A stretch of DNA of 64,000 nt, taken from assembly GCA_022842945.1 (NCBI GenBank), contig JALHOO010000002.1, positions 25,030 through 89,029 of the forward strand, in the 5' to 3' direction. The position numbers and the translations under genes were made by a program. The DNA is from Minisyncoccota bacterium (GTDB lineage: Bacteria; Patescibacteriota; Minisyncoccia; Phycocordibacterales; Phycocordibacteraceae). Positions 529-35,780 of this stretch are shown here, piece by piece. The notes under the pieces are model-generated. The model ran no database searches. It was not told the DNA's origin and was given only the letters and a program-made list of their open reading frames with translations. The number at the start of each line of letters is the position of its first letter. The first letter of the stretch is position 1.

Positions 529-1449
529 CTACATTTTGCTCTTTGAAAAGACGCTATTGACCGGAATCTTGAGAAACTCCGCTCCGGTTTCCTGGTCCTT
601 AGGGATGTGTCCCGCTCGCATATTTACCTGAAGTGACGGGATGATGAGGCGAGGCATACCGAGTGTCTCATCGCGCTTCTTTCGAAGACTAGCGAAAGCT
701 TGTAAAGTTGTGTCTTTATTCAAGTGTACATTTGTACGCTTCTGCTCCCCAACAGTTGTCTCAAACAAGTAGTCTGTACGTCCTTCCGGTAGGTAGTCGT
801 GGCACATGAACATGCGCATAGATTCCGGTAGCGTGAACAACTTTTGTGCTGACGCGTGCATATCCTCTGCGCTCCCGCCCGGGAAATCAACCCGAGCAGT
901 GCCGTAGTCAGGCATGAAGAGAGTATCTCCTGCAAACACCGCATCCCCCACCACATACGTAATGTCTGCGGGTGTGTGACCCGGTGTCGCAATAACCAGG
1001 ACTGGAATATCGCCGATTGAAAACTCGTCCCCGTCCTTAAAGAGTCGGTCAAACTGACTACCGTCTCTCTCAAACTCTGTACCCTCGTTGAATACTTTGC
1101 CGAATGTTTCCTGCACATCGAGAATCTTCTCACTTATTGCAATCTTTCCCCCGAGCCGTTCTTGTATATACGGCGCAGCAGACAAATGGTCCGCATGTAC
1201 ATGTGTCTCAAGGATCCATTCAACATGATATGCGTTCTCTTCAATATGCTTTATTAACTGGTCTGCACTCTTACACGAGATAGTGGCGCTCTCTGGTTCG
1301 TAGTCGAGAACACTATCAATAACTGCGCACCTCTTTGATGCATCGTCCGCAACTACGTAGCTAATAGTGTTCGTTGCAGGGTCGAAGAACCCCTTAACGG
1401 AGGGGTGGTAGTTAAGCAGTGCTTCATAGTTAGACATGGCTCTATGCAA
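529..1449 (-). CDS. MBL-fold metallo-hydrolase, ETHE1/Blh-like persulfide dioxygenase candidate
   Basis: THVHADH metal-binding motif and glyoxalase-II-like fold. Operon context with rhodanese and an ArsR-type regulator. Confidence 0.7.
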   Translation of the reverse strand: MHRAMSNYEALLNYHPSVKGFFDPATNTISYVVADDASKRCAVIDSVLDYEPESATISCKSADQLIKHIEENAYHVEWILETHVHADHLSAAPYIQERLGGKIAISEKILDVQETFGKVFNEGTEFERDGSQFDRLFKDGDEFSIGDIPVLVIATPGHTPADITYVVGDAVFAGDTLFMPDYGTARVDFPGGSAEDMHASAQKLFTLPESMRMFMCHDYLPEGRTDYLFETTVGEQKRTNVHLNKDTTLQAFASLRKKRDETLGMPRLIIPSLQVNMRAGHIPKDQETGAEFLKIPVNSVFSKSKM

Positions 1450-1974
1450 TTACGCTCTATTCCATGGCATCTTAGCCAATAGCATGGTCATTCCGCACCA
1501 GCCAGTAAGTCCAGCTACAAGGAGTCCAACGCCCGCGACACCTGAAAGCACAAACCACAGAGGCGACACCATGAGTCCAAGAATATGTGCGATGACGATG
1601 AGTACACCGGCTGCAATAAACGTCTGCCGCATGAGCGATAGGCGCAACGAGATCTTGGCCGTGCCATACCCGGCTTCTTCCCAGGACAAGATTCCTCCTT
1701 CCACATTTACTAGCTCAGCCTTTATCCCAAGCGCAACTAGCTTCTCCATCGCCGCAACACCTCTACGACCGGAACGGCAATGCACGTAAATAGTTTTCTT
1801 GTCTTTAAACTCCTGCACATGGCGCTCGATATCATCAAGCGGAACGGAACGGACGCCACTGATGTGCTTTTCTTTATATTCAGCAGGCGTACAAACATTG
1901 ATGAAATCAACCGAGGAGTTACTCTTCTCTGCCTCTATTACTTCCTTGAACGACGAAACGGATATGTGCTTCAT
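1450..1974 (-). CDS. Membrane-anchored rhodanese (YgaP-like: rhodanese domain + C-terminal DUF2892 two-helix membrane anchor)
   Basis: Catalytic loop CRSGRRG. Hydrophobic C-terminal ~60 aa. 1-nt junction with the upstream MBL gene. Confidence 0.75.
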   Translation of the reverse strand: MKHISVSSFKEVIEAEKSNSSVDFINVCTPAEYKEKHISGVRSVPLDDIERHVQEFKDKKTIYVHCRSGRRGVAAMEKLVALGIKAELVNVEGGILSWEEAGYGTAKISLRLSLMRQTFIAAGVLIVIAHILGLMVSPLWFVLSGVAGVGLLVAGLTGWCGMTMLLAKMPWNRA

Positions 1975-2234
1975 TTTTGTTTGATTAGAACGAGTACCCT
2001 TCGCGCAAGGTCTGTATACTCTGGAGAAACGTTTTTATAATACACATGCCGGCCGCTTTCCCGCGTCTGCACGATGCCAGCATCCCGAAGCACCGCAAGA
2101 TGCTGAGACAACGCACTCTGGCTCAACGCACATTTTCGTAAGAGCTCACTTACCGTTACTTCCTTTGCAAGGCAAGCAATAAGCTGTACACGCTGAGAGT
2201 TGCCGAGCGCCCTGCATAGATCCTTGAGTTCCAT
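1971..2234 (-). CDS. ArsR/SmtB-family HTH repressor (BigR/YgaV-like sulfide-responsive type)
   Basis: 87 aa with a winged-HTH signature (SQSALSQHLAVLRDAGIV). Cys residues in alpha1/alpha2. 4-nt overlap with the rhodanese gene. Confidence 0.7.
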   Translation of the reverse strand: MELKDLCRALGNSQRVQLIACLAKEVTVSELLRKCALSQSALSQHLAVLRDAGIVQTRESGRHVYYKNVSPEYTDLARRVLVLIKQK

Positions 2235-2237
2235 ACC

Positions 2238-2263
2238 ATTATATTAGTATTTACTAATATAAT
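2238..2263. promoter_or_regulatory. Perfect 12-bp inverted repeat ATTATATTAGTA-TT-TACTAATATAAT, candidate ArsR-type operator overlapping the promoter/start of the regulator
   Basis: Seen directly, 4 nt upstream of the arsR-like start codon. Contains a TATAAT-like hexamer. Confidence 0.6.
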
Positions 2264-2353
2264 ATGCAAGCTTATCCCCGCTTGGTTCGTGCCCTACCAA
2301 CAGACCACTGATTTACCTACAAATCGTAACCAACCTAGTCTCGGCAGCAGTTT

Positions 2354-3085
2354 TCAGAGAACTCTACCTTCTTCTTCCCTTGAGCCCTCACCTCCTGCAG
2401 GACCAGTCTCTCTTGGCGAAGAGATTATAGTGTCGAACTCATCTTGTGTTATATATCGTGGCTTGTACACACTGCCGCGAGACTCAATCTGGGCAACAAA
2501 GGCTCTCAGGTGATTACGCGAGCCCTTTAAAAGATTTTGGTATACGAGTTTTATATCGTCATTGTCAGACTGAGCCAAGCGTTCTTGCAGATCTTTAATA
2601 TCGAGATCTTCGATGAGAGCACCAACCATAAGCGCATCCATTTCAGACCTTTGTCCTTTCGTAACAAGATCCGTATAGAGCTCTGCTAAATCTGAGTTAG
2701 CAAACTTCCCAGCAGTGTCGTCTAGAACAGGATCTGTAATGTTGTACTTAACAAGCACTGTTCTTACAGCCTCAGTATGGCTCTGTTCACTCTGTGAGAT
2801 GTTTTTAAAAATAGGAAATCCCCACTTTTCGTAAAGCATGGTGTACACATCGCGTGCAAGCTTCTCCTCCTCACGCATGAACAATAGACCCTCCTTCTCA
2901 TTTTCAGAAACACCTTGCACAGGCAGAGATGTAATCTGTGGACGTAAAGACAAGAAATCAGACGAGTCTGGCGTGTCGGAAACAAGTTCGCTTGTACCTC
3001 CTCGCAGCAGACTACCAACTACAACAGCACTCGTAAGACCTAGAGCGACTACTGCGACTGCAATGCCAACTGTTGTTTTTTTCAT
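2354..3085 (-). CDS. DUF2202 ferritin-like domain protein with N-terminal signal/TM anchor
   Basis: FMREEEKLARDVY-type DUF2202 motif. Hydrophobic N-terminus. Confidence 0.55.
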   Translation of the reverse strand: MKKTTVGIAVAVVALGLTSAVVVGSLLRGGTSELVSDTPDSSDFLSLRPQITSLPVQGVSENEKEGLLFMREEEKLARDVYTMLYEKWGFPIFKNISQSEQSHTEAVRTVLVKYNITDPVLDDTAGKFANSDLAELYTDLVTKGQRSEMDALMVGALIEDLDIKDLQERLAQSDNDDIKLVYQNLLKGSRNHLRAFVAQIESRGSVYKPRYITQDEFDTIISSPRETGPAGGEGSREEEGRVL

Positions 3086-3133: not shown

Positions 3134-3163
3134 TGGGAAACGGCGCCCTAAAGCGCCGTTTCC
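3134..3163. terminator. Perfect hairpin GGGAAACGGCGC-CCTAAA-GCGCCGTTTCCC between the DUF2202 gene start and the tRNA-like element
   Basis: 12-bp GC stem. T-rich run (TAAATTTGTT) on the plus side. Likely terminates the minus-strand RNA element at 3170-3200 and/or acts bidirectionally. Confidence 0.45.
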
Positions 3164-3169
3164 CTAAAT

Positions 3170-4173: not shown

Positions 4174-5607
4174 TTATAGCGTCTCTCCCGTCACTTCTGC
4201 GCCCATAGTGAACAATAGGTCGTCAGCACCGTGCGCAGACGTGAAATGTATACCAACCGGAAGAGAAACGCCGTCTCTCTCAACCATTCCCATAGGTACC
4301 GAGATTGCGGGCATGCCGGTGAGGTTTGCGGTAACCGTAAACACGTCTTCAAGATACATAGAAACAGGGTCGCTCTTCTCGCCAAACCTGAATGCCGGAG
4401 ACGGTGTCGTTGGAAACGCAATCACGTCACAGGACCCAAACGCTGCATCATACTCAGCACGAAGTACATCACGCGCCTTATCTGCCTTGCGGTAGTACGC
4501 ATCAATATAGCCAGACGAAAGCACGAAGGTGCCCAAAAGAATACGGCGAATGGTCTCAGACCCGAAGCCTGAAGACTTGCTCTGTACATAGTCCTCAAGG
4601 AGAGACTCTCCGCGCTCTGCTAGCCCATACCGAATACCGTCATAGCGGGCAAGGTTCGCCGAGGCTTCGGCCGGCATAATCACGTAGTACGCAGATAGCG
4701 CATAGCCACTTGTTGGGAGAGATACATCAACGAGAGTGTGGCCCTTTTCGGTAAGAGCGGCAAGAGTGCGCTCAAAGCTCTCTAGCACATCCGCATCCAA
4801 GCCCTCAACGAGAAGATGCCTCGGCACCCCGATGCGAAGAGACTTCCCAACCTCTTTCACAGGATACGTATCGTCTGTAAGCGTAGTGGCATCAAGCGGA
4901 TCATGGCCCTTCATTACGTCATACAGGATCTTTGCGTCCGCAACAGACTTCGCGAGTGGACCAGCCTGATCTAGAGACGACCCAAGCGCAATAAGACCGC
5001 TTCGTGAAATGCGCCCGTAGGTAGGCTTCATACCTACGAGTCCAGTGTGTGCTGCTGGCTGGCGAATGGATCCTCCTGTATCTGTACCAAGAGCCGCGAG
5101 CGCCGTGTGCGCGGAAGCGGCCGCACTTGAACCTCCGGAAGAACCTCCCGGAACACGCGTGACATCTACAGGGTTCTTTGTCGGGCCGTATGCCGAGTGC
5201 TCGGTTGACGAACCCATAGCGAACTCGTCCATGTTGGTGCGTCCTACAAACAGCACTCCCGCTTCTTTCAGTTTCTTCGTAACCGTAGAGTCGTACGTTG
5301 CGGTGTAGTTCGCAAGCATCTTGCTGGCCGCGCTCGCCACATGTCCTTCTATAAGAATGTTGTCCTTCATCGCAAGCGGAATACCGCACAAGAGAGACGC
5401 ATTCTCCCCTTCCGCATCAATGCGTGCCTGAGCTCGCGCAATAGCATCAGCATCTGCAGGAAAGAGCTCAAGGTAAGCGTTCAGCTCAGGGTTTCGCCGT
5501 GCAGCTTCAGCACTACACGCGTCCCACAACTCCTGTACAGAAAAAGTCTTCGACCGCAGTCCTTTTGCGGCCTCAACAATAGTGAGCTCGTTGAGTGGTT
5601 TAGTCAT
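4174..5607 (-). CDS. gatA: Glu-tRNA(Gln)/Asp-tRNA(Asn) amidotransferase subunit A
   Basis: Amidase signature family, 477 aa from the internal Met (MTKPLNELTIVEAAKG). The 38-aa upstream extension in the ORF track is an Arg-rich overlap with gatC, so the start was moved to 5607. Confidence 0.85.
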   Translation of the reverse strand: MTKPLNELTIVEAAKGLRSKTFSVQELWDACSAEAARRNPELNAYLELFPADADAIARAQARIDAEGENASLLCGIPLAMKDNILIEGHVASAASKMLANYTATYDSTVTKKLKEAGVLFVGRTNMDEFAMGSSTEHSAYGPTKNPVDVTRVPGGSSGGSSAAASAHTALAALGTDTGGSIRQPAAHTGLVGMKPTYGRISRSGLIALGSSLDQAGPLAKSVADAKILYDVMKGHDPLDATTLTDDTYPVKEVGKSLRIGVPRHLLVEGLDADVLESFERTLAALTEKGHTLVDVSLPTSGYALSAYYVIMPAEASANLARYDGIRYGLAERGESLLEDYVQSKSSGFGSETIRRILLGTFVLSSGYIDAYYRKADKARDVLRAEYDAAFGSCDVIAFPTTPSPAFRFGEKSDPVSMYLEDVFTVTANLTGMPAISVPMGMVERDGVSLPVGIHFTSAHGADDLLFTMGAEVTGETL

Positions 5608-7985: not shown

Positions 7986-8447
7986 CTAATAGAAGACTTT
8001 GAGACCTCGCTCAACACGTCGGGGATCTGAAGAGGAGCACGAATTAAAACCGTTTGCGTAGATGTTTGTGACACCCGTCTGGTTCTTAAAGACCTGAACG
8101 GTGCCCTGTGTCCCTCCGGTTGCACACGGGATACTAAATTCAGACGTACGGACACCTCCAGACTGCGAGGTAGTAAATCCCGTAACAGGGGCACCAGCGC
8201 AGCGCACCTCGCCTGCCGCATTTCCCTGGTAGTCATAGCGAAACACGTTCATCTTCTGATCCCAGTAGAGCGCACATTCCATAGCAGAGTCTGCCGCATA
8301 GAACGCATACTGCGACTGCCGAGCTGTTGAGGAGAGGGTTACCTGCTTTAGCGCAATATCCAAAAGCGCGAGACCCACAGACAAAAGTACCGAGGTTAAA
8401 ATCATGGCAACAAGGAGCGTAAAGCCTCTGTGTGGAGTATGCATCAT
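7986..8447 (-). CDS. Pseudopilin/minor pilin-like protein (prepilin N-terminus RGFTLLVAM, lacks Glu5)
   Basis: Class-III signal-like N-terminus followed by a hydrophobic helix. Overlaps the upstream pseudopilin gene by 4 nt. Confidence 0.55.
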   Translation of the reverse strand: MMHTPHRGFTLLVAMILTSVLLSVGLALLDIALKQVTLSSTARQSQYAFYAADSAMECALYWDQKMNVFRYDYQGNAAGEVRCAGAPVTGFTTSQSGGVRTSEFSIPCATGGTQGTVQVFKNQTGVTNIYANGFNSCSSSDPRRVERGLKVFY

Positions 8448-8989
8448 AGCCAGTTGTAGAGACGCTCAGTAATAGTCACACTTCGTGCCTGCCCACGAGA
8501 CGTCCAGCTAACAACAACCGTGAGCATAATCTCAGTACTGGTACTTCCAAGTACCGGTGTGACACGAATGGTGCGTGTGTAGGGTGTCGCTGTTCCGCTA
8601 CCTGCCTGATTGTAGAGATTCCCTGAGCTTAGATAGAGCGGTGGATACGGAGTTGAGGTAACCCTACTAACCGTAAGCTGGGTTGGATCAACCACGCACG
8701 GAGCGGTGACACAGTTTGTAGAGCCTCCCGTGCCATCTACCCCAAACAACCATGAACGACCAGATTGTGTATTCATGAGTACATAGAGGTAGTTGCCGTC
8801 GCGAATACTGCGCACATACTCAACCCCCTCTTGCGCGAGCGAAGACGCGACAAGCTGCTCGCGTGCACTTCTGGACGCATTCAACGACTGCTGTACTGAG
8901 TACAGAGGACCAACCATTGCCGTTACCACCACCGTAACCGCAACGAGGGTCTCTATAAGCGTAAAGCCTTTGTGAGTGCGGTTGATCAT
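8444..8989 (-). CDS. Prepilin-type N-terminal cleavage/methylation domain pseudopilin
   Basis: KGFTLIETLVAV motif. Confidence 0.7.
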   Translation of the reverse strand: MINRTHKGFTLIETLVAVTVVVTAMVGPLYSVQQSLNASRSAREQLVASSLAQEGVEYVRSIRDGNYLYVLMNTQSGRSWLFGVDGTGGSTNCVTAPCVVDPTQLTVSRVTSTPYPPLYLSSGNLYNQAGSGTATPYTRTIRVTPVLGSTSTEIMLTVVVSWTSRGQARSVTITERLYNWL

Positions 8990-9594
8990 AGCTCTATGGC
9001 GCGCTGAGTGGCGCCTGTTTGTATCGAAAAGCTTGAGCTCTCACCTGCATCCGTAACCATAGTACCTGCCACAACAATAGTAACGCTTGGCTGAACAGTG
9101 TCGTTAGTAAGTGGATTACTGTCAGCATCAACACCGCGCACATAGAACCTAAGAGTAGTGATGTCTATTCTTGGATCGGTAAGCGGCACCGCGGTATCTT
9201 CTGTGCAGCTGAGTCCCGTACACTGCCCAATACTTCCATCGTTCTTCAGTATGTACGTGACACGATACTGCGAATCAGCGTCACCATCGCGGCACGTTAT
9301 ACCGTCAGGACAAAAGGATATGGAAGTCCCTCCGCCCACACAGTTCGGAGAACTTGCGTTTCCATTGCAGGCATACTCTCCTCCTGTGCGTATGGCACGT
9401 GCCATGCTCTCAAGAGCAAAGGATAGCGAGGAGGCGAGTTGGCCGTTCGCACGTGCCTGACGGTCAAGACTGATGAGCGTTACGTACGCACCCAGCACCA
9501 CAAGCATAACCATGCTGAATATGCCGAGCGATACAATGAGCTCGAGTAGGGTATATCCTCGTTTTACATTAGTGCGGTTCATTTTGTTGGACAT
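8986..9594 (-). CDS. Prepilin-type pseudopilin
   Basis: RGYTLLELIVSLGIF motif. Confidence 0.7.
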   Translation of the reverse strand: MSNKMNRTNVKRGYTLLELIVSLGIFSMVMLVVLGAYVTLISLDRQARANGQLASSLSFALESMARAIRTGGEYACNGNASSPNCVGGGTSISFCPDGITCRDGDADSQYRVTYILKNDGSIGQCTGLSCTEDTAVPLTDPRIDITTLRFYVRGVDADSNPLTNDTVQPSVTIVVAGTMVTDAGESSSFSIQTGATQRAIEL

Positions 9595-10307
9595 CCTGAT
9601 TCTCCCTCGGACAGTACGGACACCTGCCCTACCTTAGAGACCAGTACACACCGCTCTTCAACACCTCCTGGCGTTGAGACGCGGATAACGGCATTGGTAA
9701 GCACAACAACCGATCCGTTGGTGCGCGTACCGAGTATAACGGACTGCGTATTGGGTCGAAGATACGTTATGTCTATAGCCGAGAGGTAGTTTCCATTACA
9801 GCGTTCAACCCCAGCAGTGTCGTTCCCACAGAACCCACTTACTTTATAGTTGTTGTTCAGTGTATAGGTACGTACAATCTCTGACCCTTGCGTCTGCCTG
9901 CAGTCTCCTGGACGCGCCTCAGGCCCCGTACCCACCGTATGTCCAGGACACACGGATACGTTCTGTATGTTCCCTGTTCTTGTGGGATGCACATCTGCAA
10001 AGAGCACGTAGCTTCCTGCTGGAGCTGCGGCGAAGCGCACTCCGTATCCAGCATTCGTGGTTCCGTCAGTAAAGGCTCGACTTGAAATTCCTAGCGCCTG
10101 CGCTTCACGTATGGAGAACGCGACCGTGTACGCCGTGTCCGTAAGGATAAGACTGCGGTTAAACGAGGACTGCCCCACCAGAGTGATGACGGTAATGATA
10201 ACGATGATGGCGAGCACCACCATCATCTCTACGAGCGTAAACCCTCGAGAACCTTGTCGCACGAGGCGATTAAAGGTTTTTAGAATGTAAGCAGTAAGGG
10301 ATTCCAT
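9579..10307 (-). CDS. Prepilin-type pseudopilin
   Basis: RGFTLVEMMVVLAII motif. Confidence 0.7.
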   Translation of the reverse strand: MESLTAYILKTFNRLVRQGSRGFTLVEMMVVLAIIVIITVITLVGQSSFNRSLILTDTAYTVAFSIREAQALGISSRAFTDGTTNAGYGVRFAAAPAGSYVLFADVHPTRTGNIQNVSVCPGHTVGTGPEARPGDCRQTQGSEIVRTYTLNNNYKVSGFCGNDTAGVERCNGNYLSAIDITYLRPNTQSVILGTRTNGSVVVLTNAVIRVSTPGGVEERCVLVSKVGQVSVLSEGESGCPTK

Positions 10308-11035
10308 TGCGTAACGTAGGCGAGCAGATAGCCGGCCGCGAGAAAAGGCACGAACGGTACTTCAATACCTATTCTATGGCCTTTGGGCGCTCGCACCAAT
10401 ATACCAATGCCAACAACTGCACCTATCCAAAATGAGAACAAGAGTCCTGGAATCGCGAGCGTGCTGCCAACCAGTGTAGCGAGTGCAAACGCAACCGGCG
10501 CGTCCCCGAGCCCCATGGCACGCCCTCCAGAAAACGCATAGAGCAGAAAGAATCCAAGACCTATGAACCCTGCGATCATGAGTGTCGCACCGAGCAGTTG
10601 CACTGCACTTGAGGATAGAAGAGCGTAGAGCACTGCAAAGAGAATGAGAAGCAATGAACTTGCAGGTGGCACGATGGTATGACGCAGATCGTAGAGGACA
10701 ATGAACGTGAGCGTAGTAAGTGCAAGTAGAAATGGTATGAGAGCAAGAGTGAACCCTATCTTTACATAGGCAATCGCAAACAACGTACCGAGCACTGCTT
10801 CGCTTATGGTGTAGGACACGGGCACCTTTGCCTTACAGGTGCGACACCTCCCCCTTGATCCTATCCATGAGAACACCGGCACCAGGTCCAGCGCTGTTAG
10901 TTCCCTGCTACACGAGTTGCATTGAGATCTCCCTTTAATCCAAGACTGCCCCGTATACAAGCGCTCGGCAATAACTGCCATGAAGCTGGCGAGAATGGCA
11001 CCGAGAACAAAGAACGGTATGACGAAAAGATCCAT
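10280..11035 (-). CDS. pilD: Prepilin peptidase (A24 family)
   Basis: Polytopic membrane protein with a CNSC...CRTC zinc-binding tetracysteine, typical of PilD. Confidence 0.8.
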   Translation of the reverse strand: MDLFVIPFFVLGAILASFMAVIAERLYTGQSWIKGRSQCNSCSRELTALDLVPVFSWIGSRGRCRTCKAKVPVSYTISEAVLGTLFAIAYVKIGFTLALIPFLLALTTLTFIVLYDLRHTIVPPASSLLLILFAVLYALLSSSAVQLLGATLMIAGFIGLGFFLLYAFSGGRAMGLGDAPVAFALATLVGSTLAIPGLLFSFWIGAVVGIGILVRAPKGHRIGIEVPFVPFLAAGYLLAYVTQWNPLLLTF

Positions 11036-11074
11036 AATGCTTCTAGTATAACGTCCTTAATAGACATATACGCA

Positions 11075-11102
11075 AAAAGCTCCGACGTGCGGAGCTTTTT
11101 GC
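11075..11102 (-). terminator. Intrinsic terminator after the major pilin gene (GCTCCGCACGTCGGAGC + U-tract)
   Basis: Hairpin AAAAAGCTCCG-ACGTG-CGGAGCTTTTTGCG seen. The U-run is on the minus-strand RNA. Confidence 0.65.
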
Positions 11103-11117
11103 GCTTGTGTGTGCGAA

Positions 11118-11564
11118 CTAGTTCTGTGAAGTACACGTTCCACAGGCCCCTGCGCTCTGTGCGCCAGCCGTACCACACTTCTTGCCGGTTGAGTCAACGC
11201 ACCAGAAGGCTGTTGCCATACCTGAAGGGCGTGTTGAAGAAACAGCGTACGCGCCAGCTGCGCCAGTGCACGATACACCCGTTCCAGTACCGTTTGCATT
11301 CTCTGCAGAAGCAATAGCCTGTACAACAGACGCATCTGAACATACCGTTGCGTAGCTTGGAGACGCTGCACCGTCGTAGACGATCTCTGCCTGTGTTGCG
11401 ATAGAGGCAAGGTTCGACTTGATGGAAGCGTCGTTCCCTCGACTACGCGCCGTATTGAGGGATGCGAGTACGACGGAGGAGAGGATACCGATGATGGCAA
11501 TAACGACGAGGAGCTCGATGAGCGTAAAGCCGCGATCTGCCTTCTTAATGTGTCCGAGTGTCAT
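11118..11564 (-). CDS. pilA: Type IV major pilin (PilA-like) with C-terminal disulfide pairs
   Basis: RGFTLIELLVVIAIIGILSSVVLASLNTAR. Start moved to the internal Met (MTLGHIKKADRGFTL). Confidence 0.8.
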   Translation of the reverse strand: MTLGHIKKADRGFTLIELLVVIAIIGILSSVVLASLNTARSRGNDASIKSNLASIATQAEIVYDGAASPSYATVCSDASVVQAIASAENANGTGTGVSCTGAAGAYAVSSTRPSGMATAFWCVDSTGKKCGTAGAQSAGACGTCTSQN

Positions 11565-11668
11565 AGAGTCTATAAATGAATTAATGCGCATAATGGGTAA
11601 CTATCCGCTTCTCCACATTGTACGCCACCCTTCTCCCTGTCTCGGTGTCCATGGGGATAACGGGTGGT

Positions 11669-12877
11669 TTACGAAATCGAGCCGGCAAGGTTATAGATTG
11701 GAATAAGCACAGACGCAAGCAGGGTTCCCACACCAAGACCAAGGAGCACAATCATCATAGGCTCGATAAGGTCCACAAGGGTATCAACGGCCGTAGTAAC
11801 CTCGCGCTGGTAGAACTTGGCAAGGGTTGTAAGGATGTTCCCAAGCTCTCCGGTCTCCTCACCCACTCGCACCATTGCGGTCATAATGCCGGGAATTTCT
11901 GCATGCTGAGCTAAAGCATCAGAAATAGACGAACCTCCCTTCACCGCCTCCCCCACCTCAAGCAGAATAGTCTCGTAGGTAGCGCTCCCTACAACTGCAC
12001 CTGTTATCTCAACCGCCTCAACAACCGGCACACCCGACACAAGCATCGTTGCAAAGTTGTCCGCAATGCGCGAAAGGTAGAGCTTCTGATATAGATCGCC
12101 CACATAGGGCACCTCAAGCTTAAGCTTGTCGAAGAAGAGTTTTCCTGCCTCTGTCTGCAGAGAGCGATACACAAAGAATGCGCCAACGCCCATAGCAATG
12201 AGAAGAAGGAATCCGTAGTTAACTAAGAAATCAGATGCGGTAATAACTACCTGCGTATAGACCGGTATTGCCTGTCCTGAGTCCTTGAGGATGGAGGCGA
12301 TACGCGGGATAACCATCGTGAGCATGAGACCCATAACCACGAAGAACACACCGATAACGAACGCCGGGTAGATAAGCGCATTCTGCGCCTTCGACATAAC
12401 CTCGTACGTGCGATCGAGGTAATCAGCAAGATATCCAAAGGTCTCTGAAAGACGTCCCGACTCCTCGCCGGATCGCACCATGTTTACATAGAAGCTTGAG
12501 AATACTTTAGGGTGCCTTGAAAGCGCTTTTGAAATAGGACTTCCTCCCTGCAGATCGTCTGCAACCTGCGTCATAACCTCTGCAAGCGTCTTGTTATCAA
12601 CTTCGCTCGCAAGGAGACGGAAGATGCGAAGCGCTGATACTTGGGCCTCGAACAAAGTCGCTATCTGCCGAGAGAGGATAACCACTTCTTTATTCGACAC
12701 ATGCTTAAGGAAACTCAGCTCAACATTGAGAAGCGACTTCTTCTCAATAGGCTCAATGGAAGAAACGATAAGACCACGGCGCTGGAGCGTAGAGACTGCA
12801 ACATCTACCGACAGGGCTTCAACGGTACCTGCCCGTTCATGTCCATCCTTGTCGAGTGCGTGATAGGAAAAAAGCAT
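11669..12877 (-). CDS. pilC: Type IV pilus assembly platform protein (GspF/PilC family)
   Basis: 402 aa, duplicated T2SF domains, 3 TM segments. Confidence 0.85.
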   Translation of the reverse strand: MLFSYHALDKDGHERAGTVEALSVDVAVSTLQRRGLIVSSIEPIEKKSLLNVELSFLKHVSNKEVVILSRQIATLFEAQVSALRIFRLLASEVDNKTLAEVMTQVADDLQGGSPISKALSRHPKVFSSFYVNMVRSGEESGRLSETFGYLADYLDRTYEVMSKAQNALIYPAFVIGVFFVVMGLMLTMVIPRIASILKDSGQAIPVYTQVVITASDFLVNYGFLLLIAMGVGAFFVYRSLQTEAGKLFFDKLKLEVPYVGDLYQKLYLSRIADNFATMLVSGVPVVEAVEITGAVVGSATYETILLEVGEAVKGGSSISDALAQHAEIPGIMTAMVRVGEETGELGNILTTLAKFYQREVTTAVDTLVDLIEPMMIVLLGLGVGTLLASVLIPIYNLAGSIS

Positions 12878-12883
12878 AGGGCG

Positions 12884-13951
12884 TTATAGATACCGCTCGA
12901 AGGTCTTTGGATCGTTCGCACGCTCATACGCGTGCTCGATAGTAACTTCGCCTCGGCGAACAAGCTCCGCGAGAGAGCGGTCCATATCAATCATGCCCTC
13001 CTGGGAACTCGTCTGAATAACCGTTGTTATCTCGTGTGTACGTCCTTCACGAATAAGGTTTGAGACCGCACTGTTGTTTATGAGAAGCTCATACGCAGGC
13101 AACTGGCCTCCTGAGATGCGCGGAATAAGACGCTGGCTGAAGATACCCGCAAGAGACCCTGCAAGCTGCACACGTACCTGGTCCTGCTGGTTTGGCGGGA
13201 ACATGTCGATAATACGATCAATAGTCTGCGCGGCATTGTTGGTGTGAAGTGTAGAAAGCACCAAGTGTCCGGTCTCCGCTGCCGTAACCGCGCTTGAGAT
13301 AGTCTCCTGGTTACGCATCTCCCCCACCATGATTACGTTCACGTCCTCACGGAATGCTGAGTTAAGTGCTGAATGGAAGTCAGGCGTATCAATGTGCACT
13401 TCACGCTGATGAATAAGAGACTTCTTCTGCTCGAAGATGTACTCAACCGGATCCTCGATCGTCACAATATGCTCCGCACGCGTCTCATTAATGCGATCAA
13501 TGATGGTCGCAAGTGTCGTGGACTTTCCCTGCCCCACCGGACCCACAACCAAGAAGAATCCCTGGGACCTCTGACTGAACACTTCGAGGATGGGTGGAAG
13601 GTTCAAGCTCTCAAAGGAACGGATCTGATGCGGAATGAGACGCATGGCGATAGTAACCGCTCCCTGCACCATGTATCCGTTGATACGAAAGCGTGCCTTG
13701 GAAGTATGTGCGTATGAAAAGTCTATAGACTGCTCAGCAGCAAAACGCTCGAATCTACTGGCTGGCGCAATGCTCTTAAGGTACCCAAGAGTGACCTCTG
13801 GAGTGAGTACCGGATGCTGAAGAAGCGGTACGAGTGAACCGGAGATGCGCACAATTGGATTATTCCCTGCTGAAAGATGCAGGTCAGAGCCGCCTTCAGA
13901 CACTACGGTATCAAGCAGTGCTTTAAGTGTTGCATCTATCTGTTCATTCAT
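12884..13951 (-). CDS. pilT: Twitching-motility/retraction ATPase
   Basis: 355 aa. Walker A GPVGQGKSTT. PilT-length secretion ATPase. Confidence 0.8.
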   Translation of the reverse strand: MNEQIDATLKALLDTVVSEGGSDLHLSAGNNPIVRISGSLVPLLQHPVLTPEVTLGYLKSIAPASRFERFAAEQSIDFSYAHTSKARFRINGYMVQGAVTIAMRLIPHQIRSFESLNLPPILEVFSQRSQGFFLVVGPVGQGKSTTLATIIDRINETRAEHIVTIEDPVEYIFEQKKSLIHQREVHIDTPDFHSALNSAFREDVNVIMVGEMRNQETISSAVTAAETGHLVLSTLHTNNAAQTIDRIIDMFPPNQQDQVRVQLAGSLAGIFSQRLIPRISGGQLPAYELLINNSAVSNLIREGRTHEITTVIQTSSQEGMIDMDRSLAELVRRGEVTIEHAYERANDPKTFERYL

Positions 13952-13953
13952 GC

Positions 13954-14337
13954 TTAAGCCTCAATTATCTTTATGGTCTCTGCAAATACTTCGGACGGGA
14001 TAGCGGAAGCCTTGATGATGTAGCCGTGAGCGCCCAGTGCCTTCGCCTGTGCAATATCTGACTCCTGTCCCTGGTTTGAGAGAACAATCTTTTTCATCGC
14101 TCCTCCAAGATTCTCTTTCTTAATCGCTTCGAGAATTTCAAACCCGGTCATTTCGGGCATAACAATGTCTACAAGAAGCGCGTCCGGTGCAGAGTGCTCA
14201 CGGAGTGCTACGAGGAGATCGACGCCACCTGCAAATGCCGTTACCTCGTGCCCTGCCGCCTTGAACTTAACGGCATACATGTCCAACAGGAATCGGTCGT
14301 CATCAACAAGGTAGAGGCGGTAGGGTGCAGTAGGCAT
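13954..14337 (-). CDS. Single-domain CheY-like response regulator embedded between pilB and pilT (PilH/PilG-like)
   Basis: REC domain with DDD...D...K residues. Start moved to the internal Met (MPTAPYRLYLVDDD). Confidence 0.7.
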   Translation of the reverse strand: MPTAPYRLYLVDDDRFLLDMYAVKFKAAGHEVTAFAGGVDLLVALREHSAPDALLVDIVMPEMTGFEILEAIKKENLGGAMKKIVLSNQGQESDIAQAKALGAHGYIIKASAIPSEVFAETIKIIEA

Positions 14338-14344
14338 ACGTGAT

Positions 14345-16099
14345 CTATTTAGGTGCAGTCTCCCCTTCTTCGTCGAGAATGGTCTGGCCACCCAGCGCAT
14401 TCACCTCTTCGAAAGGAATCTGTCCTGCTAACGCTTTAATGATAGCATCCTCGCGCATGGTAAACATGCCCTTGGCGCGAGCGGCCGCATACACCGATTC
14501 CTCTGTAGGAGTGGTGAGCACTACGTGTTCTAGTTCCTTATCCATACGTAGGAACTCAAAGACTGCGAGGCGTCCACGGGTTCCGTTCGGACAGTCAGGG
14601 GTAGCCTGGGCGCTGTAGAACGTATCAAATGCCGGGAGGTTTTGACGATACTCCTCAGGAAGGTCGTTGAACTCACGCGTGAGAAGACCCTTCATACTCT
14701 CTGAAAGAGGCATGGGCTTCCCCGCCCCCGGACAGAGCTTGCGGACCAGTCGCTGACTAATAGCCGCAATGAGGGTTGGTGCAATGAGGTAGGGGTCGAC
14801 ACCCATATCAACCAAGCGAGGAATAACACCCGCGGCGGTGTTGGTGTGGATGGTTGAGAACACGAGGTGCCCGGTAAGCGCAGCCTGGATAGCAAGCTGT
14901 GCGGTCTCTTTGTCGCGAATCTCTCCCACCATAATAATGTCCGGGTCCTGGCGAAGAATAGAGCGGAGGCCCGATGCGAAGGTGTAGCCAATCTCCGGAC
15001 GCACCTGTGATTGCGACACGCCAGCAATCTCATACTCAACCGGATCCTCAACCGACACTACGTTTGCAGATTCCCGATCAAGCTCGGTAAGCATCGAAAA
15101 GAGCGTGGTCGACTTTCCAGAACCTGTAGGTCCCGCAATGAGAATAATGCCGTACGGCTTCTTGATAATCTCTCGCACCTGCGCAAGGTCCGTAGCAGAC
15201 AGACCGATGGTCTCAAGGGTTGCGACTGACTTTGCGCTATCAAGAATACGCATCACCACCTTCTCCCCTCCTTGGGTTGGGAACGTCGATACACGGAAAT
15301 CAATACGGCGCCCCTCAACCGTTGCTGAGAAGCGTCCGTCCTGTGGTTTTCGTTTCTCATCAAGGCGCATCTGCGAAAGAATCTTGATACGCGCCACAAC
15401 CGCAGGGTGCACCTTTGCCGGAAGCTCAAGAGACGTATGGAGCTCTCCATCCATGCGGAAGCGCACGCGTGTTTTCTCAGGCGTTGGCTCTACATGAATA
15501 TCTGAAGCCCCGCCTTCTACCGCGTAGCGTAGTATGGTTGCCACAATCTTTGTAACCGGCGCATCCGCCTTGATGTTGGTCTCCTGCACACCTTCGGCTG
15601 GAGCCGCTTCCTTACCCTCATCAAGATCTACCGGCGCGCCCTCGATTTCAGAGAGTGCCTCACCCACTTCTCCGGAGAGATTCTCGTATTCCTTAAGTAC
15701 ACGATCAAAGTCTGTCTGCGAGATTATGAAAAGCTTGTACGGCATACTCACCCGGCTCGATATGAACTGGAGTGCGTCGAGTGCCTCAATGTTGTCCGGG
15801 TCAAGAATACCTACGGACAGCGCACCGTCTGTTGCCTCTATAGGTACGAAGCCGTAATGCCGCGCGGACTCTTCTGGAATAAAGGAGAGGGTGTGCGTGT
15901 CTGAGAGCTCGGACGGCAGCTTACGATACGGAATCTGGTACTTCTGCGACACCGCCTCGTACGCAGTATCAAGTGCAATCTTGCGCTTCTCGAGCGCCAT
16001 ATCAACCGTTACCCCCTTTGAACGTACCTCTTCCTCAACGCTTGCAGCGTCTTCAGGTGTGAGGATTCCTTTTTCTGTTAGAAGAGCAACGAGATTCAT
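14345..16099 (-). CDS. pilB: Type IV pilus extension ATPase (GspE/PilB family)
   Basis: 584 aa. N-terminal T2SSE_N domain. Walker A GPTGSGKSTT. Confidence 0.85.
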   Translation of the reverse strand: MNLVALLTEKGILTPEDAASVEEEVRSKGVTVDMALEKRKIALDTAYEAVSQKYQIPYRKLPSELSDTHTLSFIPEESARHYGFVPIEATDGALSVGILDPDNIEALDALQFISSRVSMPYKLFIISQTDFDRVLKEYENLSGEVGEALSEIEGAPVDLDEGKEAAPAEGVQETNIKADAPVTKIVATILRYAVEGGASDIHVEPTPEKTRVRFRMDGELHTSLELPAKVHPAVVARIKILSQMRLDEKRKPQDGRFSATVEGRRIDFRVSTFPTQGGEKVVMRILDSAKSVATLETIGLSATDLAQVREIIKKPYGIILIAGPTGSGKSTTLFSMLTELDRESANVVSVEDPVEYEIAGVSQSQVRPEIGYTFASGLRSILRQDPDIIMVGEIRDKETAQLAIQAALTGHLVFSTIHTNTAAGVIPRLVDMGVDPYLIAPTLIAAISQRLVRKLCPGAGKPMPLSESMKGLLTREFNDLPEEYRQNLPAFDTFYSAQATPDCPNGTRGRLAVFEFLRMDKELEHVVLTTPTEESVYAAARAKGMFTMREDAIIKALAGQIPFEEVNALGGQTILDEEGETAPK

Positions 16100-16222
16100 C
16101 TAATGGGAGCCGAAGTTCAAGACCTCGAGATTATAAAACGGTCGATAATATACTGCCCTGCGACCCTGACTTCCCTAAGTGTACTACGTGCACGAACACT
16201 ACACGCAGTGCATGCGGGGAAA

Positions 16223-16528
16223 TCACTCTGCAGCCACACCGGGAAGTGGCGAAAACGGATCCGTACGTCCTTCTACTTCCGGCTGGATAACGGTCTTGAT
16301 GTCTACCAATGCCTCAAAGCGAGGATCGCGGAGTACCGTTACATCGAATGAGATCGAACCAAGCTGTGCGGCAAGCGTGAGGAAGGTAGCTTGTGCCGCG
16401 CTTGAGGCACCCACACTAGTGGTAATAGTGTCTTCAGCATTCGGACGCATCCAAAGGAAGTACGCAATAACACCGAGCACCACAATAGCGGCCGCAATAG
16501 TTATGGAAGTGTTCTTTGAAAGTGCCAT
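16223..16528 (-). CDS. Small single-pass membrane protein in the pilus cluster (possible PilP-analog)
   Basis: 101 aa, one TM helix. Located between pilO and pilB. Confidence 0.35.
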   Translation of the reverse strand: MALSKNTSITIAAAIVVLGVIAYFLWMRPNAEDTITTSVGASSAAQATFLTLAAQLGSISFDVTVLRDPRFEALVDIKTVIQPEVEGRTDPFSPLPGVAAE

Positions 16529-16532
16529 AGAG

Positions 16533-17117
16533 TTATTTGAGCCAGTAAAGACGGAACGTAATGTCGTAGGTGTAAATACCGGTCTGAGAGTCAGTAACGG
16601 AAATCTCTACCACGTCGATATGACGAAGACTGTTCTCAACACCCAGAAGGAATGTCTGGAACGCCGCATAACTACCGGTTGCTGCTACAGAAAGGTCGAG
16701 AGACTCGGTGGGTTCTCCAGCACTCAGCGCAAGCGCACCACTACCCCCTCCTCCAAGTGGCGCCGTGCCCTGGGTGCTAGAGGCCTCAGTGTTGCTTTCA
16801 ATACTAAACTCGGACAGCTGTACTCCTGAGCGCGCCGCAAGCGAGTTCAGGTCAACAATGAGTCTAACGTTGTCTACGTTATCTGGAAGAAACGACTCGA
16901 GACGTATGATCTGTTCGTCCGTAATAGCAGCGCGATCACGTGTAAGCTGAATCTCTTTCTCCTTGAAGTCTGTGGCGGCCGCAAGCGCCGTATCAAGGTC
17001 TCGTATCTCTGTCGTGAGATCAACAATAGAACCGCTATACGTAGGCTGCACATACCCAATAAAGAGGCCGGCAGCGCCGATAATCATGAGGAGCGGGATG
17101 ATGCGAGTGAATATCAT
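16533..17117 (-). CDS. pilO: Type IV pilus biogenesis protein PilO-like
   Basis: N-terminal TM plus coiled coil and PilO-like periplasmic domain. 4-nt overlap with pilN. Confidence 0.6.
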   Translation of the reverse strand: MIFTRIIPLLMIIGAAGLFIGYVQPTYSGSIVDLTTEIRDLDTALAAATDFKEKEIQLTRDRAAITDEQIIRLESFLPDNVDNVRLIVDLNSLAARSGVQLSEFSIESNTEASSTQGTAPLGGGGSGALALSAGEPTESLDLSVAATGSYAAFQTFLLGVENSLRHIDVVEISVTDSQTGIYTYDITFRLYWLK

Positions 17118-17836
17118 GGTTGTGGAGTGCTAGTGGCACGCGTACTTGAGGCAGTGGTTGTGCCGGGTGTCGTTGCTGGCTGCAGATTTGGAGCCACGGG
17201 CTCGTTCACAACAGGAGGGGGTACTGTACCTGAAGACGGCTCAGAAATACCAGGGAACGCTTCTGCTGAGGTAATGAGTCTCGGGTCCAGAGTTGCCGTC
17301 ACCGAGAATCCAACGGTGCCATTTGTGTTTACTGAAATGTCAGAAAAGATTGCACTCTTGATGCGCTTCTCACTTGCTATAGCGGTGGTCTGCGCCGCAA
17401 GCGCATTAAAGCTACGGGCAACACCCTCCATAGTCACTTCTGCGGAACGGTCTTCGTTTACCGAAAGCGAAAGCGTATTGAAACGAACGGTCTGCAAAGT
17501 CTTTGCTTCAAGGACCGTAAAGAACTTTGTAAGCTCGATGTGATCGTTCAGCATTCGCTCCACCTCAACTAGGCGGTTCTTAAGTCGAATGAAACCTTCC
17601 ACCACATCAAGGTTAACTGATCGCTGTGCCTGAAGGAGTTCTGCAGACTTCGCATCGCGTGCACTCTTCAGGTAGAGTTCGTACCCAAAGACTCCAGCCG
17701 CAACAAGTGCACTAATACCCGCAACGGCAATAGCAATCAAAAGAAGCACGCTACGTCCGCTCTTTTGAGAACGTGCGTGCGTTGATACCGGTTGTTTTGG
17801 TACGAACGAGGTTGGAATGGTCGGAGGTAATGCCAC
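17114..17836 (-). CDS. pilN: Type IV pilus biogenesis protein PilN-like
   Basis: Single TM then coiled-coil region. Operon position between pilM and pilO. Confidence 0.6.
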   Translation of the reverse strand: MALPPTIPTSFVPKQPVSTHARSQKSGRSVLLLIAIAVAGISALVAAGVFGYELYLKSARDAKSAELLQAQRSVNLDVVEGFIRLKNRLVEVERMLNDHIELTKFFTVLEAKTLQTVRFNTLSLSVNEDRSAEVTMEGVARSFNALAAQTTAIASEKRIKSAIFSDISVNTNGTVGFSVTATLDPRLITSAEAFPGISEPSSGTVPPPVVNEPVAPNLQPATTPGTTTASSTRATSTPQP

Positions 17837-17904
17837 AGTGGTGTTAAGTATACGGGAGAATGTGCGCTATAGAGGCTTCTTATGCACAGAGACCATGAAG
17901 ATGC

Positions 17905-18993
17905 CTACTCCTCTTCTTCAAGCTTGCGCAGTGCAAGACCTACCGCAACCGCGAACTCTGGACCAATAGCCTGCAGTACCGGACGCATGAACTCAGGAGC
18001 CTGTGTCTTGCTGAAAGGATCGGCGACACGCACATCTACAGAGAAGAATCCCTTTGCGTACGCCTCGAGCTCTTTGGTTACGCCCCCTCCCCCCGTAAGA
18101 ACCAAGCAGGAGACTTTCGCATTCTTCGCCATTTCATACTGCGTAAGCGCACGCTTCGCCTCTTCAAAGATGCGCGAGAACACGAGCTCAATAGAACGAT
18201 GGTCGTAGGTCCCTGCTTCCTGCGTAAAGCCATGCGCTTTCTTAAGGGTCTCAGCATCTCCCACCGTAATACCTTGTGAGGTGGCGATGGTGCGTGTCAC
18301 GTCCTGCCCGCCACTTGGAATGTTGTGCGAGAACGCAACCACGCCGTGCTCAACCACATACACCTTCGTAGCACTTGCACCAATATCAAGGACAAGCACT
18401 GGCTTAACCGGCTCATCAACTACAGAACGAATGGTGCTGAATATCTCAATCTCATAGAAGGTTGCCGAAAGCTCGGACCCTCGTACCACACCCTCAAGCA
18501 AAGAGAGCTCGTCGTTATGCACGGCCACAAGCAGCACCTGCACCTTAGGAGGAGGTGCTGCTCCTTCAGGAATAGCTTCCGGAAGAATAAACCAGTCGAG
18601 CTGCACCTCCGTTACGGGTACGGGAATATACTTTCTCGCCTCGAGCTCAATTACCGTCTTTTGCTCCTCCGGACTATCTCTCCGAGGAAGCTCAACGAGT
18701 GTAAGTAGAGTACGAGAGAACGGGATAGAAATCCCCGCGTCTTTCGTAGTTACATTAGCTTCACGTAGGAGGTCGTTGAGTGTCTCTGCAATCTTTGCCG
18801 CAGGAAGATTGGTTGCCTGTCCCACCTCAACGCCCGCGTACGGACCCAGGGCGAGCTCGCCATAGGTCTCAAGCACCGCAGTGCCTCCCTGGCGACGCAG
18901 CTGCACCACTTTCAAAGACGAGGAGCCTATGTCCACGCCGATTACGCTCTTCGACTTCTTTGTGTCACCGAAAAGTTTTGTGAGGAACCCCAT
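17905..18993 (-). CDS. pilM: Type IV pilus assembly ATPase-like actin-fold protein
   Basis: VIGVDIGSSSLKVVQL actin-like N-terminus. 362 aa. Confidence 0.8.
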   Translation of the reverse strand: MGFLTKLFGDTKKSKSVIGVDIGSSSLKVVQLRRQGGTAVLETYGELALGPYAGVEVGQATNLPAAKIAETLNDLLREANVTTKDAGISIPFSRTLLTLVELPRRDSPEEQKTVIELEARKYIPVPVTEVQLDWFILPEAIPEGAAPPPKVQVLLVAVHNDELSLLEGVVRGSELSATFYEIEIFSTIRSVVDEPVKPVLVLDIGASATKVYVVEHGVVAFSHNIPSGGQDVTRTIATSQGITVGDAETLKKAHGFTQEAGTYDHRSIELVFSRIFEEAKRALTQYEMAKNAKVSCLVLTGGGGVTKELEAYAKGFFSVDVRVADPFSKTQAPEFMRPVLQAIGPEFAVAVGLALRKLEEEE

Positions 18994-26897: not shown

Positions 26898-26974
26898 GCA
26901 CCCTTAGCTCAGTTGGTTAGAGCACCTAGCTTATACCTAGGCGGTCCTTGGTTCGAGTCCAAGAGGGTGCACCA
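26898..26974 (+). tRNA. tRNA with anticodon loop CTTATAC (anticodon UAU), a candidate tRNA-Ile2(UAU) reading AUA
   Basis: Hand-folded cloverleaf: acceptor GCACCCT/AGGGTGC (7/7 Watson-Crick), D-stem GCTC/GAGC, anticodon stem CCTAG/CTAGG, T-arm CTTGG-TTCGAGT-CCAAG, encoded CCA. Confidence 0.7.
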
Positions 26975-27324: not shown

Positions 27325-27352
27325 GAACGGCGACTCCTCTCGGAGTCGCCGT
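27325..27352. terminator. Bidirectional hairpin AACGGCGACTCC-TCTC-GGAGTCGCCGTT between the small gene and the ftsH 3' end
   Basis: 12-bp stem. TTCCTTTTG follows on the plus strand. Confidence 0.6.
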
Positions 27353-27368
27353 TTTCCTTTTGCGTGCC

Positions 27369-29830: not shown

Positions 29831-29872
29831 TCGATCGGTCCCGTTCTCTATTCCTCTTGAGGAATAGAGAAC

Positions 29873-30280: not shown

Positions 30281-30358
30281 GATATAGAACTATGTAGAAA
30301 TACATGGAACAGTAGAAAACCGCCCTGAGGCGGTTTTCTACTCGATACACAGTACTGA

Positions 30359-35739: not shown

Positions 35740-35780
35740 GCAAAGCAAAAGCCCCGCACATGCGGGGCTTTTGCTTTGCA
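35740..35780. terminator. Strong bidirectional intrinsic terminator GCAAAGCAAAAGCCCCGCA-CA-TGCGGGGCTTTTGCTTTGC
   Basis: 19-bp perfect stem with flanking A/T runs. Follows rplT and the convergent EamA gene. Confidence 0.8.

Follow-up and report, generated by a model that had tools for sequence, protein, structure and literature searches.

Could a bacterium of the candidate phyla radiation (CPR) keep a sulfur-detoxification operon under the control of its own small repressor, and what would such a repressor sense? This question is raised by three genes near one end of a 64,000-nt stretch of contig JALHOO010000002.1 (positions 25,030–89,029; assembly GCA_022842945.1, a Minisyncoccota bacterium), which we call the window and to which all coordinates below refer. 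On the minus strand, the three genes encode an ArsR/SmtB-family repressor, a YgaP-like membrane rhodanese and a stand-alone persulfide dioxygenase (PDO) with a metallo-beta-lactamase (MBL) fold. We consider it probable that they form a self-repressed arsR–ygaP–pdo operon that removes persulfide/sulfane sulfur in this Patescibacteria (CPR) bacterium. The arrangement is a known kind of sulfur-detoxification system, with a variant regulator.

The arsR gene (1971–2234) starts with ATG and encodes 87 aa with cysteines at positions 7, 21 and 35, the rhodanese gene (1450–1974) encodes 174 aa, and the pdo gene (529–1437) encodes 302 aa from its ATG. A preliminary description of the locus had recognized three tightly coupled minus-strand genes, and all four of the corresponding Pfam families indeed match: PF01022 in the regulator (6e-10), PF00581 and PF11127 in the rhodanese (5e-12 and 7e-6) and PF00753 in the MBL protein (2e-20). 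Its junctions of 1–4 nt hold for arsR/ygaP, which share a 4-nt ATGA overlap, but not for ygaP and the MBL gene, which are separated by a 12-nt spacer. An alternative TTG start for the MBL gene lies at 1449; the ATG at 1437 is favoured because the orthologues are 300–302 aa long. Likewise, an in-frame TAA at 2240–2238 means that the ArsR protein has no longer N-terminus. At the other end, 94 nt past the pdo stop codon, a hairpin with a perfect, GC-rich 12-bp stem (406–435) probably closes the operon; having no T-run tail, it was passed over by the terminator scan.

By sequence, the MBL protein belongs to the type II persulfide dioxygenases, and its activity is predicted from its relatives. Residues 11–294 align with residues 3–286 of PaPDO (9g8t) over 284 ungapped residues at 53% identity (E 4e-104), followed by 4efz (E 1e-97) and PpPDO2 (4ysk; E 2e-94), whereas type I ETHE1 is matched only at E 2e-18, glyoxalase II is also far weaker and the beta-lactamases are weaker still. 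PaPDO of Pseudomonas aeruginosa, a characterised dioxygenase of glutathione persulfide (GSSH), binds its metal through His71, His146 and Asp163, and in PpPDO the residues Arg174, Arg244 and Arg247 bind glutathione (PMC12856154). Both sets are retained: the window protein carries the HxHxDH motif (H79-V-H81-A-D83-H84), its Fe triad H79/H154/D171 aligns with H71/H146/D163, and its R182, R252 and R255 align with the three glutathione-binding arginines, so that the two triads are identical to those of PaPDO and PpPDO2. Thus, the earlier label of a Blh/ETHE1-like dioxygenase is right as to the active-site residues and the best relatives, which are persulfide dioxygenases rather than beta-lactamases or glyoxalase II, but not as to a Blh fusion. 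The Blh model of NCBIfam (NF040641) is matched only at positions 139–422 of 423, with 373 bits against a cut-off of 625; as this is the PDO domain alone, the enzyme is a stand-alone PDO.

The rhodanese has the YgaP architecture that had been attributed to it. Its PF00581 domain (46.7 bits) contains the catalytic loop H-C66-RSGRRG and matches the YgaP rhodanese domain in the Protein Data Bank (2moi), and its C-terminal domain of two transmembrane (TM) helices matches PF11127 (26.5 bits against a cut-off of 25.3) and, over residues 111–173, the YgaP TM domain (2mpn; E 4e-15). Together, the two genes act on persulfide/sulfane sulfur and not on H2S itself.

What would control them? A perfect 12-2-12 palindrome, ATTATATTAGTA-TT-TACTAATATAAT (2238–2263), lies directly in front of arsR. 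Its arms (2238–2249 and 2252–2263) are 100% complementary, and it ends 3 nt from the ATG at 2234; the preliminary description had the perfect arms right and the distance, given as 4 nt, slightly wrong. Within it, the 20-nt conserved core ATATTAG-N6-CTAATAT (2241–2260) occurs as a single copy in the window (0.00 expected in 100 shuffles), and no other copies were found in the window at up to 3 mismatches. The window as a whole is rich in perfect inverted repeats of 12 nt or longer, with 13 against 0.09 expected per block-shuffled window; 12 of the 13 are GC-rich hairpins of terminator type, and the operator alone is of the AT-only kind (GC 0.08).

We compared this candidate operator across nine loci, namely the window, L083, L085, L086, L001 and L207–L210, whose ArsR proteins are 63–100% identical. 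Besides the window, eight orthologous loci fetched by exact-protein look-up have arsR in one operon with rhodanese and PDO genes, and L001 (GTDB) shows the gene trio by tblastn. The upstream neighbours vary (DUF2202, an FAD-binding protein, Fic and unknown proteins) and the flanks are unrelated, and the core ATATTAG-N6-CTAATAT is identical in all nine, ending 6–7 nt before the ATG in each. At the level of sequence, this conservation is the strongest argument against a chance palindrome. A TTGCnn box is also common to the nine loci, 2–4 nt upstream of the core and 16–18 nt before TAATAT; beyond it, the upstream sequence shows no conservation. In the window, the order on the minus strand is a -35-like TTGCAT (2264–2269), a 17-nt spacer, a -10-like TAATAT (2241–2246) inside the promoter-proximal arm of the palindrome, AATGGT and then ATG. 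The palindrome thus overlaps the proposed promoter of the regulator's own gene and is conserved together with the regulator, which suggests that it is an autoregulated ArsR operator, with binding and self-repression as predictions. On this point, the conservation at orthologous loci that was to be expected of such an operator was found.

The same layout bears on how translation begins. No Shine-Dalgarno (SD) motif fits between TAATAT and the arsR ATG, and SD-like tetramers precede only 3 of the 26 well-supported gene starts in the window (529–59797). A TAnnnT hexamer ending 5–8 nt before the start, on the other hand, is found at 7 of the 26, against a background of 4%; the genes that bear it, mostly the first of their transcription units, include those for ArsR, DUF2202, a 197-aa protein, LigA, PilM and a Na/Ca exchanger. 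These observations suggest that the arsR mRNA is leaderless, with the operator lying over the spacer and the -10 element, and that leaderless initiation may be common in this CPR genome. The combination of TTGCnn, operator, TAATAT, 6 nt and ATG with rare SD-like motifs amounts to a concrete prediction of leaderless transcription for a CPR lineage.

The core also resembles a known ArsR-family target. The experimentally defined NolR consensus is (A/T)TTAG-N9-A(T/A) (PMC12445080), and the operator core fits it, its TTAG and CTAA half-sites being 10 bp apart, centre to centre. Furthermore, we scanned metagenome contigs for the 20-mer ATATTAGYAWATRCTAATAT and obtained 120 loci. An ArsR-family gene follows the 20-mer directly in 30 of them (32 gene placements, with a commonest motif-to-ATG gap of 6 nt), and these loci have TTGACA or TTGCAT 16–17 nt before TAATAT; in the other 90, no ArsR gene adjoins the motif. 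Chance accounts for at least one of the 120 matches, L158, where the copy sits in an AT-rich repeat region. The operator-sharing ArsR proteins are 27–52% identical to that of the window and are of several types: short proteins with C21/C35, proteins with the canonical BigR/HlyU-type cysteines in alpha2 and alpha5, and a 104-aa type with CKPGVC. Those of the C21/C35 type precede genes for glutaredoxin, DUF302-glutaredoxin, DUF2892 (the YgaP TM domain only), rhodanese and PDO. As a separate observation, the CKPGVC type (104–110 aa, CKPGVC...LCVNAL) stands behind the ATATTAGCATATACTAATAT operator in L104, L105, L115, L117, L146 and L157, and its genes are followed by one for a small Cys-rich protein (MCCxT...CxCGC) with no Pfam match.

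The regulator itself has an ordinary fold and an unusual set of cysteines. It exceeds the cut-offs of PF01022 (39 against 22 bits) and of the NCBIfam model HTH_metalloreg (76 against 55), and its AlphaFold2 monomer model (pLDDT 88.9) comprises alpha1–alpha5 (residues 3–10, 13–21, 28–35, 39–51 and 71–85) and a wing (55–68), with Foldseek TM-scores of 0.75–0.85 to HlyU, BigR, SqrR and SmtB. In the PDB and Foldseek comparisons, the top matches are HlyU, BigR, SqrR and NolR, and the recognition helix LSQSALSQHLAVLR is near-identical to those of HlyU and NolR. BigR is also the best curated family match, though below cut-off. Among 39 ArsR orthologues (60–100% identity), C7, C21 and C35 are invariant. 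These proteins are 85–90 aa long, one cluster representative having a 47-aa N-terminal extension, and 37 of the 39 end at residue 85–87; a score drop from 103 to 60 bits sets the clade apart from other ArsR proteins. In the model, C7 is part of alpha1, and C21 and C35 are the last residues of alpha2 and alpha3, respectively, the latter cysteine standing just before the recognition helix. Of the 150 best cluster representatives, 32 have both C21 and C35, whereas about 11 would do so if the two occurred independently. C7 is limited to the CPR clade, and the wider family retains C21 and C35 only. These patterns point to a thiol-based switch at a not yet characterised site, and the gene context favours sulfane sulfur as its signal.

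Putting these elements together, we propose the following mechanism. A dimer of the 87-aa ArsR would bind ATATTAG-N6-CTAATAT, with roughly one helical turn between its TTAG and CTAA half-sites. The palindrome would span the promoter's spacer and its -10 hexamer, TAATAT, and the transcript would probably begin at the A of the ATG; a repressor bound to the palindrome would therefore exclude RNA polymerase. Modification of the thiols of C21, C35 and the clade-specific C7, most likely by sulfane sulfur (persulfide/polysulfide) as the inducer, would lower the affinity for DNA and lead to derepression. The Fe(II) type II PDO would then use O2 to convert low-molecular-weight persulfide into sulfite, and the membrane-anchored rhodanese could shuttle sulfane sulfur, either to load a thiol carrier or to form thiosulfate from persulfide and sulfite.

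Several points weigh against this proposal. BigR, SqrR and HlyU, which make up cluster 4 of a sequence similarity network, sense persulfide by means of a cysteine pair in alpha2 and alpha5 that forms an intraprotomer polysulfide bridge (PMC10509353). In HMMER alignments, the alpha2 column occupied by C42 of BigR and C30 of HlyU is Ala20 in the window ArsR: counting from the conserved Arg15, the alpha2 cysteine is at R+5 in BigR and HlyU and at R+6 (C21) here. The alpha5 cysteine (C108 of BigR) is absent, and none of the 39 orthologues has a cysteine after residue 35. The BigR model of NCBIfam (NF040642) gives only 49.1 bits against a cut-off of 155, over model positions 9–76 of 95. Consequently, the earlier assignment to a BigR/YgaV-like regulator was incorrect as to the sensing site, and the conserved cysteine pair expected of it takes another form, the canonical alpha2/alpha5 pair being replaced by an invariant C7/C21/C35 set. 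Since the canonical cysteines are missing, the specificity for reactive sulfur species is drawn from gene context alone. In the model, moreover, C21 and C35 flank alpha3, one at either end, and a direct bridge may be out of their reach, and the glutaredoxin genes behind same-type relatives would fit a general sensor of thiol oxidation equally well. A simple sigma-70 consensus scan does not list the proposed arsR promoter because TTGCAT matches only three of the six positions of TTGACA, and the promoter evidence is therefore comparative only. As for the enzymes, the PDO keeps arginines for binding glutathione, a thiol that this organism may lack. CPR bacteria are usually regarded as anaerobic fermenters, and PDO requires O2. 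Finally, no SQR-like or other sulfur gene was found among the 13 scanned window open reading frames (ORFs) of at least 300 aa; with the two enzymes acting on persulfide, the claim of a complete sulfide-sensing module went too far. Two further window ORFs of this size encode LigA, identified by its Pfam domains, and GatA, identified by homology to an Amidase-annotated gene of L085.

Could the repressor instead be a general sensor of thiol oxidation or disulfide stress? In that case, the operon would be as described, and O2, H2O2 or disulfides would act on the repressor through disulfides or sulfenates at C21/C35 (and C7). We regard this as unlikely, though it deserves a hearing: C21/C35 relatives with the same operator precede the glutaredoxin and DUF302-glutaredoxin genes, the canonical persulfide-sensing pair is absent, and H2O2 is sensed through different cysteine pairs by some ArsR-family members, RexT among them (PMC10509353). 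However, the regulated enzymes, rhodanese and PDO, act on sulfane sulfur; outside the CPR, the nearest homologues share this gene context and are persulfide-type sensors of the canonical form; and persulfide sensors are also what the curated families (BigR as best match) and the structures (HlyU, BigR and SqrR as closest) return.

A different doubt concerns the purpose of the enzymes. They might be catabolic or assimilatory, with rhodanese and PDO turning thiosulfate or persulfide into sulfite as a source of energy or sulfur, a role of the kind proposed for CPR bacteria from sulfidic springs. For adjacent PDO and rhodanese genes in CPR genomes, a part in oxidising thiosulfate and generating energy has been suggested (PMC10811913), and the operon is widespread and vertically inherited in its lineage. 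This reading appears improbable to us: the PDO reaction is uncoupled from electron transport, for which the operon encodes no component; genes for sulfite oxidase, Sox, Apr or Sat are absent beside it; and detoxification operons are usually laid out in this way, with a thiol-based sensor as repressor. Least probable of all, and in our view very doubtful, is an S3 site for a metal or metalloid (As(III), Cd/Pb or Cu(I)) formed by C7, C21 and C35, with the operon responding to a thiophilic metal: the three invariant cysteines lie on alpha1, alpha2 and alpha3, the ArsR family has known three-Cys sites for As(III) that draw on N-terminal and alpha3-region residues, the generic NCBIfam match is named metalloregulator ArsR/SmtB and CmtR is the third-best specific match (40 bits), but no metal or arsenic transporter or reductase occurs in any orthologous operon, the wider family has C21/C35 without C7, and all specific metal-sensor models score far below their cut-offs.

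How does the proposed persulfide-responsive operon compare with known systems? The closest non-CPR relatives are proteobacterial and have the layout pdo<->arsR–ygaP, as in Caulobacter vibrioides DSM 9893 (L049), Hyphomonas (L007 and L012) and Phenylobacterium (L002). They combine the same families as the window (ArsR 45–55%, YgaP-like rhodanese 34–40% and type II PDO about 49% identical), share the identical recognition helix LSQSALSQHLAVLRD and have TTAG-N6-CTAA boxes beside arsR. In these modules, however, pdo is divergent and the boxes are tandem and overlapping, whereas in the window pdo is collinear; and the proteobacterial regulator has 105–123 aa with an N-terminal extension and cysteines in alpha2 (LMILC) and alpha5 (I[F/Y]CP), in contrast to the 87 aa and C7/C21/C35 of the window protein.

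In the BigR–Blh system of Xylella fastidiosa and Agrobacterium tumefaciens, an ArsR-family repressor controls a sulfurtransferase and a PDO for sulfide/persulfide detoxification (PMC5823870). The combination of repressor, sulfurtransferase and PDO is that of the window; Blh fuses the latter two as domains of one protein, whereas the window PDO stands alone, and BigR differs from the window ArsR in its Cys42/Cys108 pair and in its recognition helix (IGQPTLSQQL). E. coli YgaV–YgaP has, as in the window, an ArsR-family gene followed by one for a rhodanese with a C-terminal two-helix membrane domain, but ygaVP lacks a PDO gene, and YgaV (3cuo) is more distant from the window ArsR than HlyU, NolR or BigR. 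The closest solved structures are HlyU (Vibrio) and NolR (Sinorhizobium), whose helix LSQSALSQHL is near-identical to that of the window ArsR; unlike the latter, neither is encoded in a rhodanese–PDO operon, and we know of no inducer for NolR. HlyU is an activator of virulence genes, and its alpha2/alpha5 cysteine pair forms a tetrasulfide (PMC10509353).

Within the CPR, Valentin-Alvarado et al. (2024) described adjacent PDO and rhodanese genes in Doudna-, Kaiser-, Pace-, Moran- and Gracilibacteria as a "conserved genomic architecture" (PMC10811913). The window resembles these genes in having sulfurtransferase and PDO side by side within one phylum-level group. Their enzymes were modelled on the type I PDO–rhodanese fusion 5VE3, whereas the window PDO is type II-like, and that paper mentions no regulator, operator or YgaP membrane domain (the terms "ArsR" and "transcriptional regulator" occur 0 times). 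Type II PDOs have been described as predominantly proteobacterial (PMC12856154); the window PDO, in contrast, belongs to a large CPR clade. The enzyme pair in CPR genomes and the adjacency of PDO and rhodanese were already known (PMC10811913), and what is new is the regulator's variant set of cysteines, the conserved and probably leaderless promoter–operator layout, an exchange of ArsR for a CsoR-like regulator and an association with DUF2202, the last two of which are described below.

Was the operon acquired recently by horizontal transfer, as had been supposed? The lineage of the window is clear: its LigA is about 80% identical to proteins named as Patescibacteria group, Candidatus Paceibacterota or Parcubacteria, and together with the remaining gene content, which includes ribosomal protein genes, SecY, EF-Tu and EF-G, these relatives confirm a CPR origin. 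The PDO has more than 100 homologues that form a continuous series at 64–100% identity, and all of the named ones are from CPR bacteria (Minisyncoccia, Paceibacterota and Nomurabacteria). We then measured identities between window proteins and those of a related 502-kb contig, L085. LigA and PDO are both 79% identical, with 81% for the YgaP-like protein, 70% for ArsR, 80% for the 197-aa neighbour and 84% for GatA. The order gatA–197aa–...–operon is retained in L085 and L207, and arsR–rhodanese–MBL is retained in L083–L086 and L207–L210 with differing upstream neighbours. The GC content of the three genes (0.49–0.50) is near that of their neighbours (0.50–0.54), and GC at third codon positions is also close. 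Recent acquisition is thus contradicted by the CPR-wide homologues, the LigA-matched divergence, the gatA–197aa synteny and the near-native GC. Instead, the equal divergence of PDO and LigA, the synteny and the GC content indicate that the operon was vertically inherited within its lineage; an older transfer between Proteobacteria and CPR is plausible. For the CPR, this makes an O2-dependent sulfur-detoxification operon vertically inherited, common and probably regulated in Paceibacteria-type lineages, which bears on the habitat of CPR bacteria (oxic–sulfidic interfaces) and on the thiol cofactor that they use.

One orthologous locus departs from this uniformity. In L001 (Patescibacteria metagenome-assembled genome H41-bin080, 4620–5486), ArsR is 63% and rhodanese 79% identical to the window proteins, yet the downstream MBL protein is only 44% identical to the window PDO; the rhodanese match is short (103 aa) and has no TM domain. 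This locus suggests exchange or divergence of the module's enzyme genes. Separately, a Na/Ca-exchanger gene (PF01699) lies directly downstream of pdo in L085 (4613–5581) and L209 (1883–2851), and a gene of this family is present in the window (32973–33935), about 31 kb from the operon.

The regulator can be replaced as well. In L212 (Nomurabacteria, 1330–1662), a CsoR/RcnR-family regulator (PF02583, 31 bits) takes the place of ArsR, and in L211 (Paceibacterota, 2150–2446), where the regulator frame is broken at a short A-run close to its 5' end, one stands before the YgaP–PDO genes. A CstR-like label for the L212 regulator was ruled out by its single cysteine. Both loci have a promoter layout of TTGACA, the GC-rich palindrome TATAGGGTACCCCCTATA, TATACT, about 6 nt and ATG. 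Since either an ArsR or a CsoR-like protein can precede YgaP–PDO, the enzyme pair is found under at least two unrelated small repressors.

A further recurrent gene is that for a DUF2202 protein, which in the window lies immediately upstream of arsR (2354–3085, minus strand) and has its own TATACT–7 nt–ATG start. The protein, MJ0754-like and ferritin-like, has an N-terminal TM/signal segment and matches PF09968 (222 bits) and Methanocaldococcus jannaschii MJ0754 (3q4n; E 5e-65). In L212, a DUF2202 gene (2257–2988) lies between YgaP and PDO in the operon; in L097 (~10210–11220), DUF2202 is fused to a secreted rhodanese with the same ArsR operator in front; and in L123, a palindrome one mismatch from that of the window (8373–8398) lies about 170 nt upstream of a DUF2202 gene (8569–9576). 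It is possible that the DUF2202 protein is an accessory component of the module with its own promoter, a functional link that we infer from these placements.

Persulfide-sensing ArsR proteins are currently defined by a single alpha2/alpha5 cysteine pair, and here is a widespread short family that shares their DNA-reading head and type of target gene but carries cysteines at other positions. This leads us to a broader and more speculative proposal, for which we would claim possibility rather than likelihood. The 85–90-aa CPR repressor may represent an uncharacterised sensing-site class of the ArsR family, in which a C21/C35 core on either side of the helix-turn-helix, at the C-termini of alpha2 and alpha3, with an extra alpha1 cysteine in the CPR clade, replaces the alpha2/alpha5 persulfide switch while the HlyU/NolR-type helix and the TTAG-N6-CTAA operator are kept; and the secreted DUF2202/MJ0754 protein may be an unrecognised partner of rhodanese and PDO. 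If these repressors do respond to sulfane sulfur, the ArsR scaffold would have gained persulfide sensing at two or more different sites, and the 87-residue protein would offer a minimal model for it.

Other features were noted in the window. A type IV pilus cluster (7986–18993) encodes PilM, PilB, PilT, PilC, the prepilin peptidase PilD and three pilins with the N-methyl motif. ARAGORN places a tRNA-Ile with the anticodon TAT (UAU) at 26898–26974 on the plus strand; most bacteria, as far as is known, read AUA with a modified CAU anticodon instead. The twelve GC-rich hairpins with stems of at least 12 bp comprise, besides that at 406–435, those at 3135–3164, 11071–11103, 27326–27353, 29841–29874, 30311–30342, 32025–32058, 35743–35776, 38232–38264, 45317–45346, 45767–45799 and 54680–54711. 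Many have the form AAAAG–GC-core–CTTTT and resemble a bidirectional intrinsic terminator, and similar hairpins precede the ArsR promoter in L085, L086, L207, L208 and L209.

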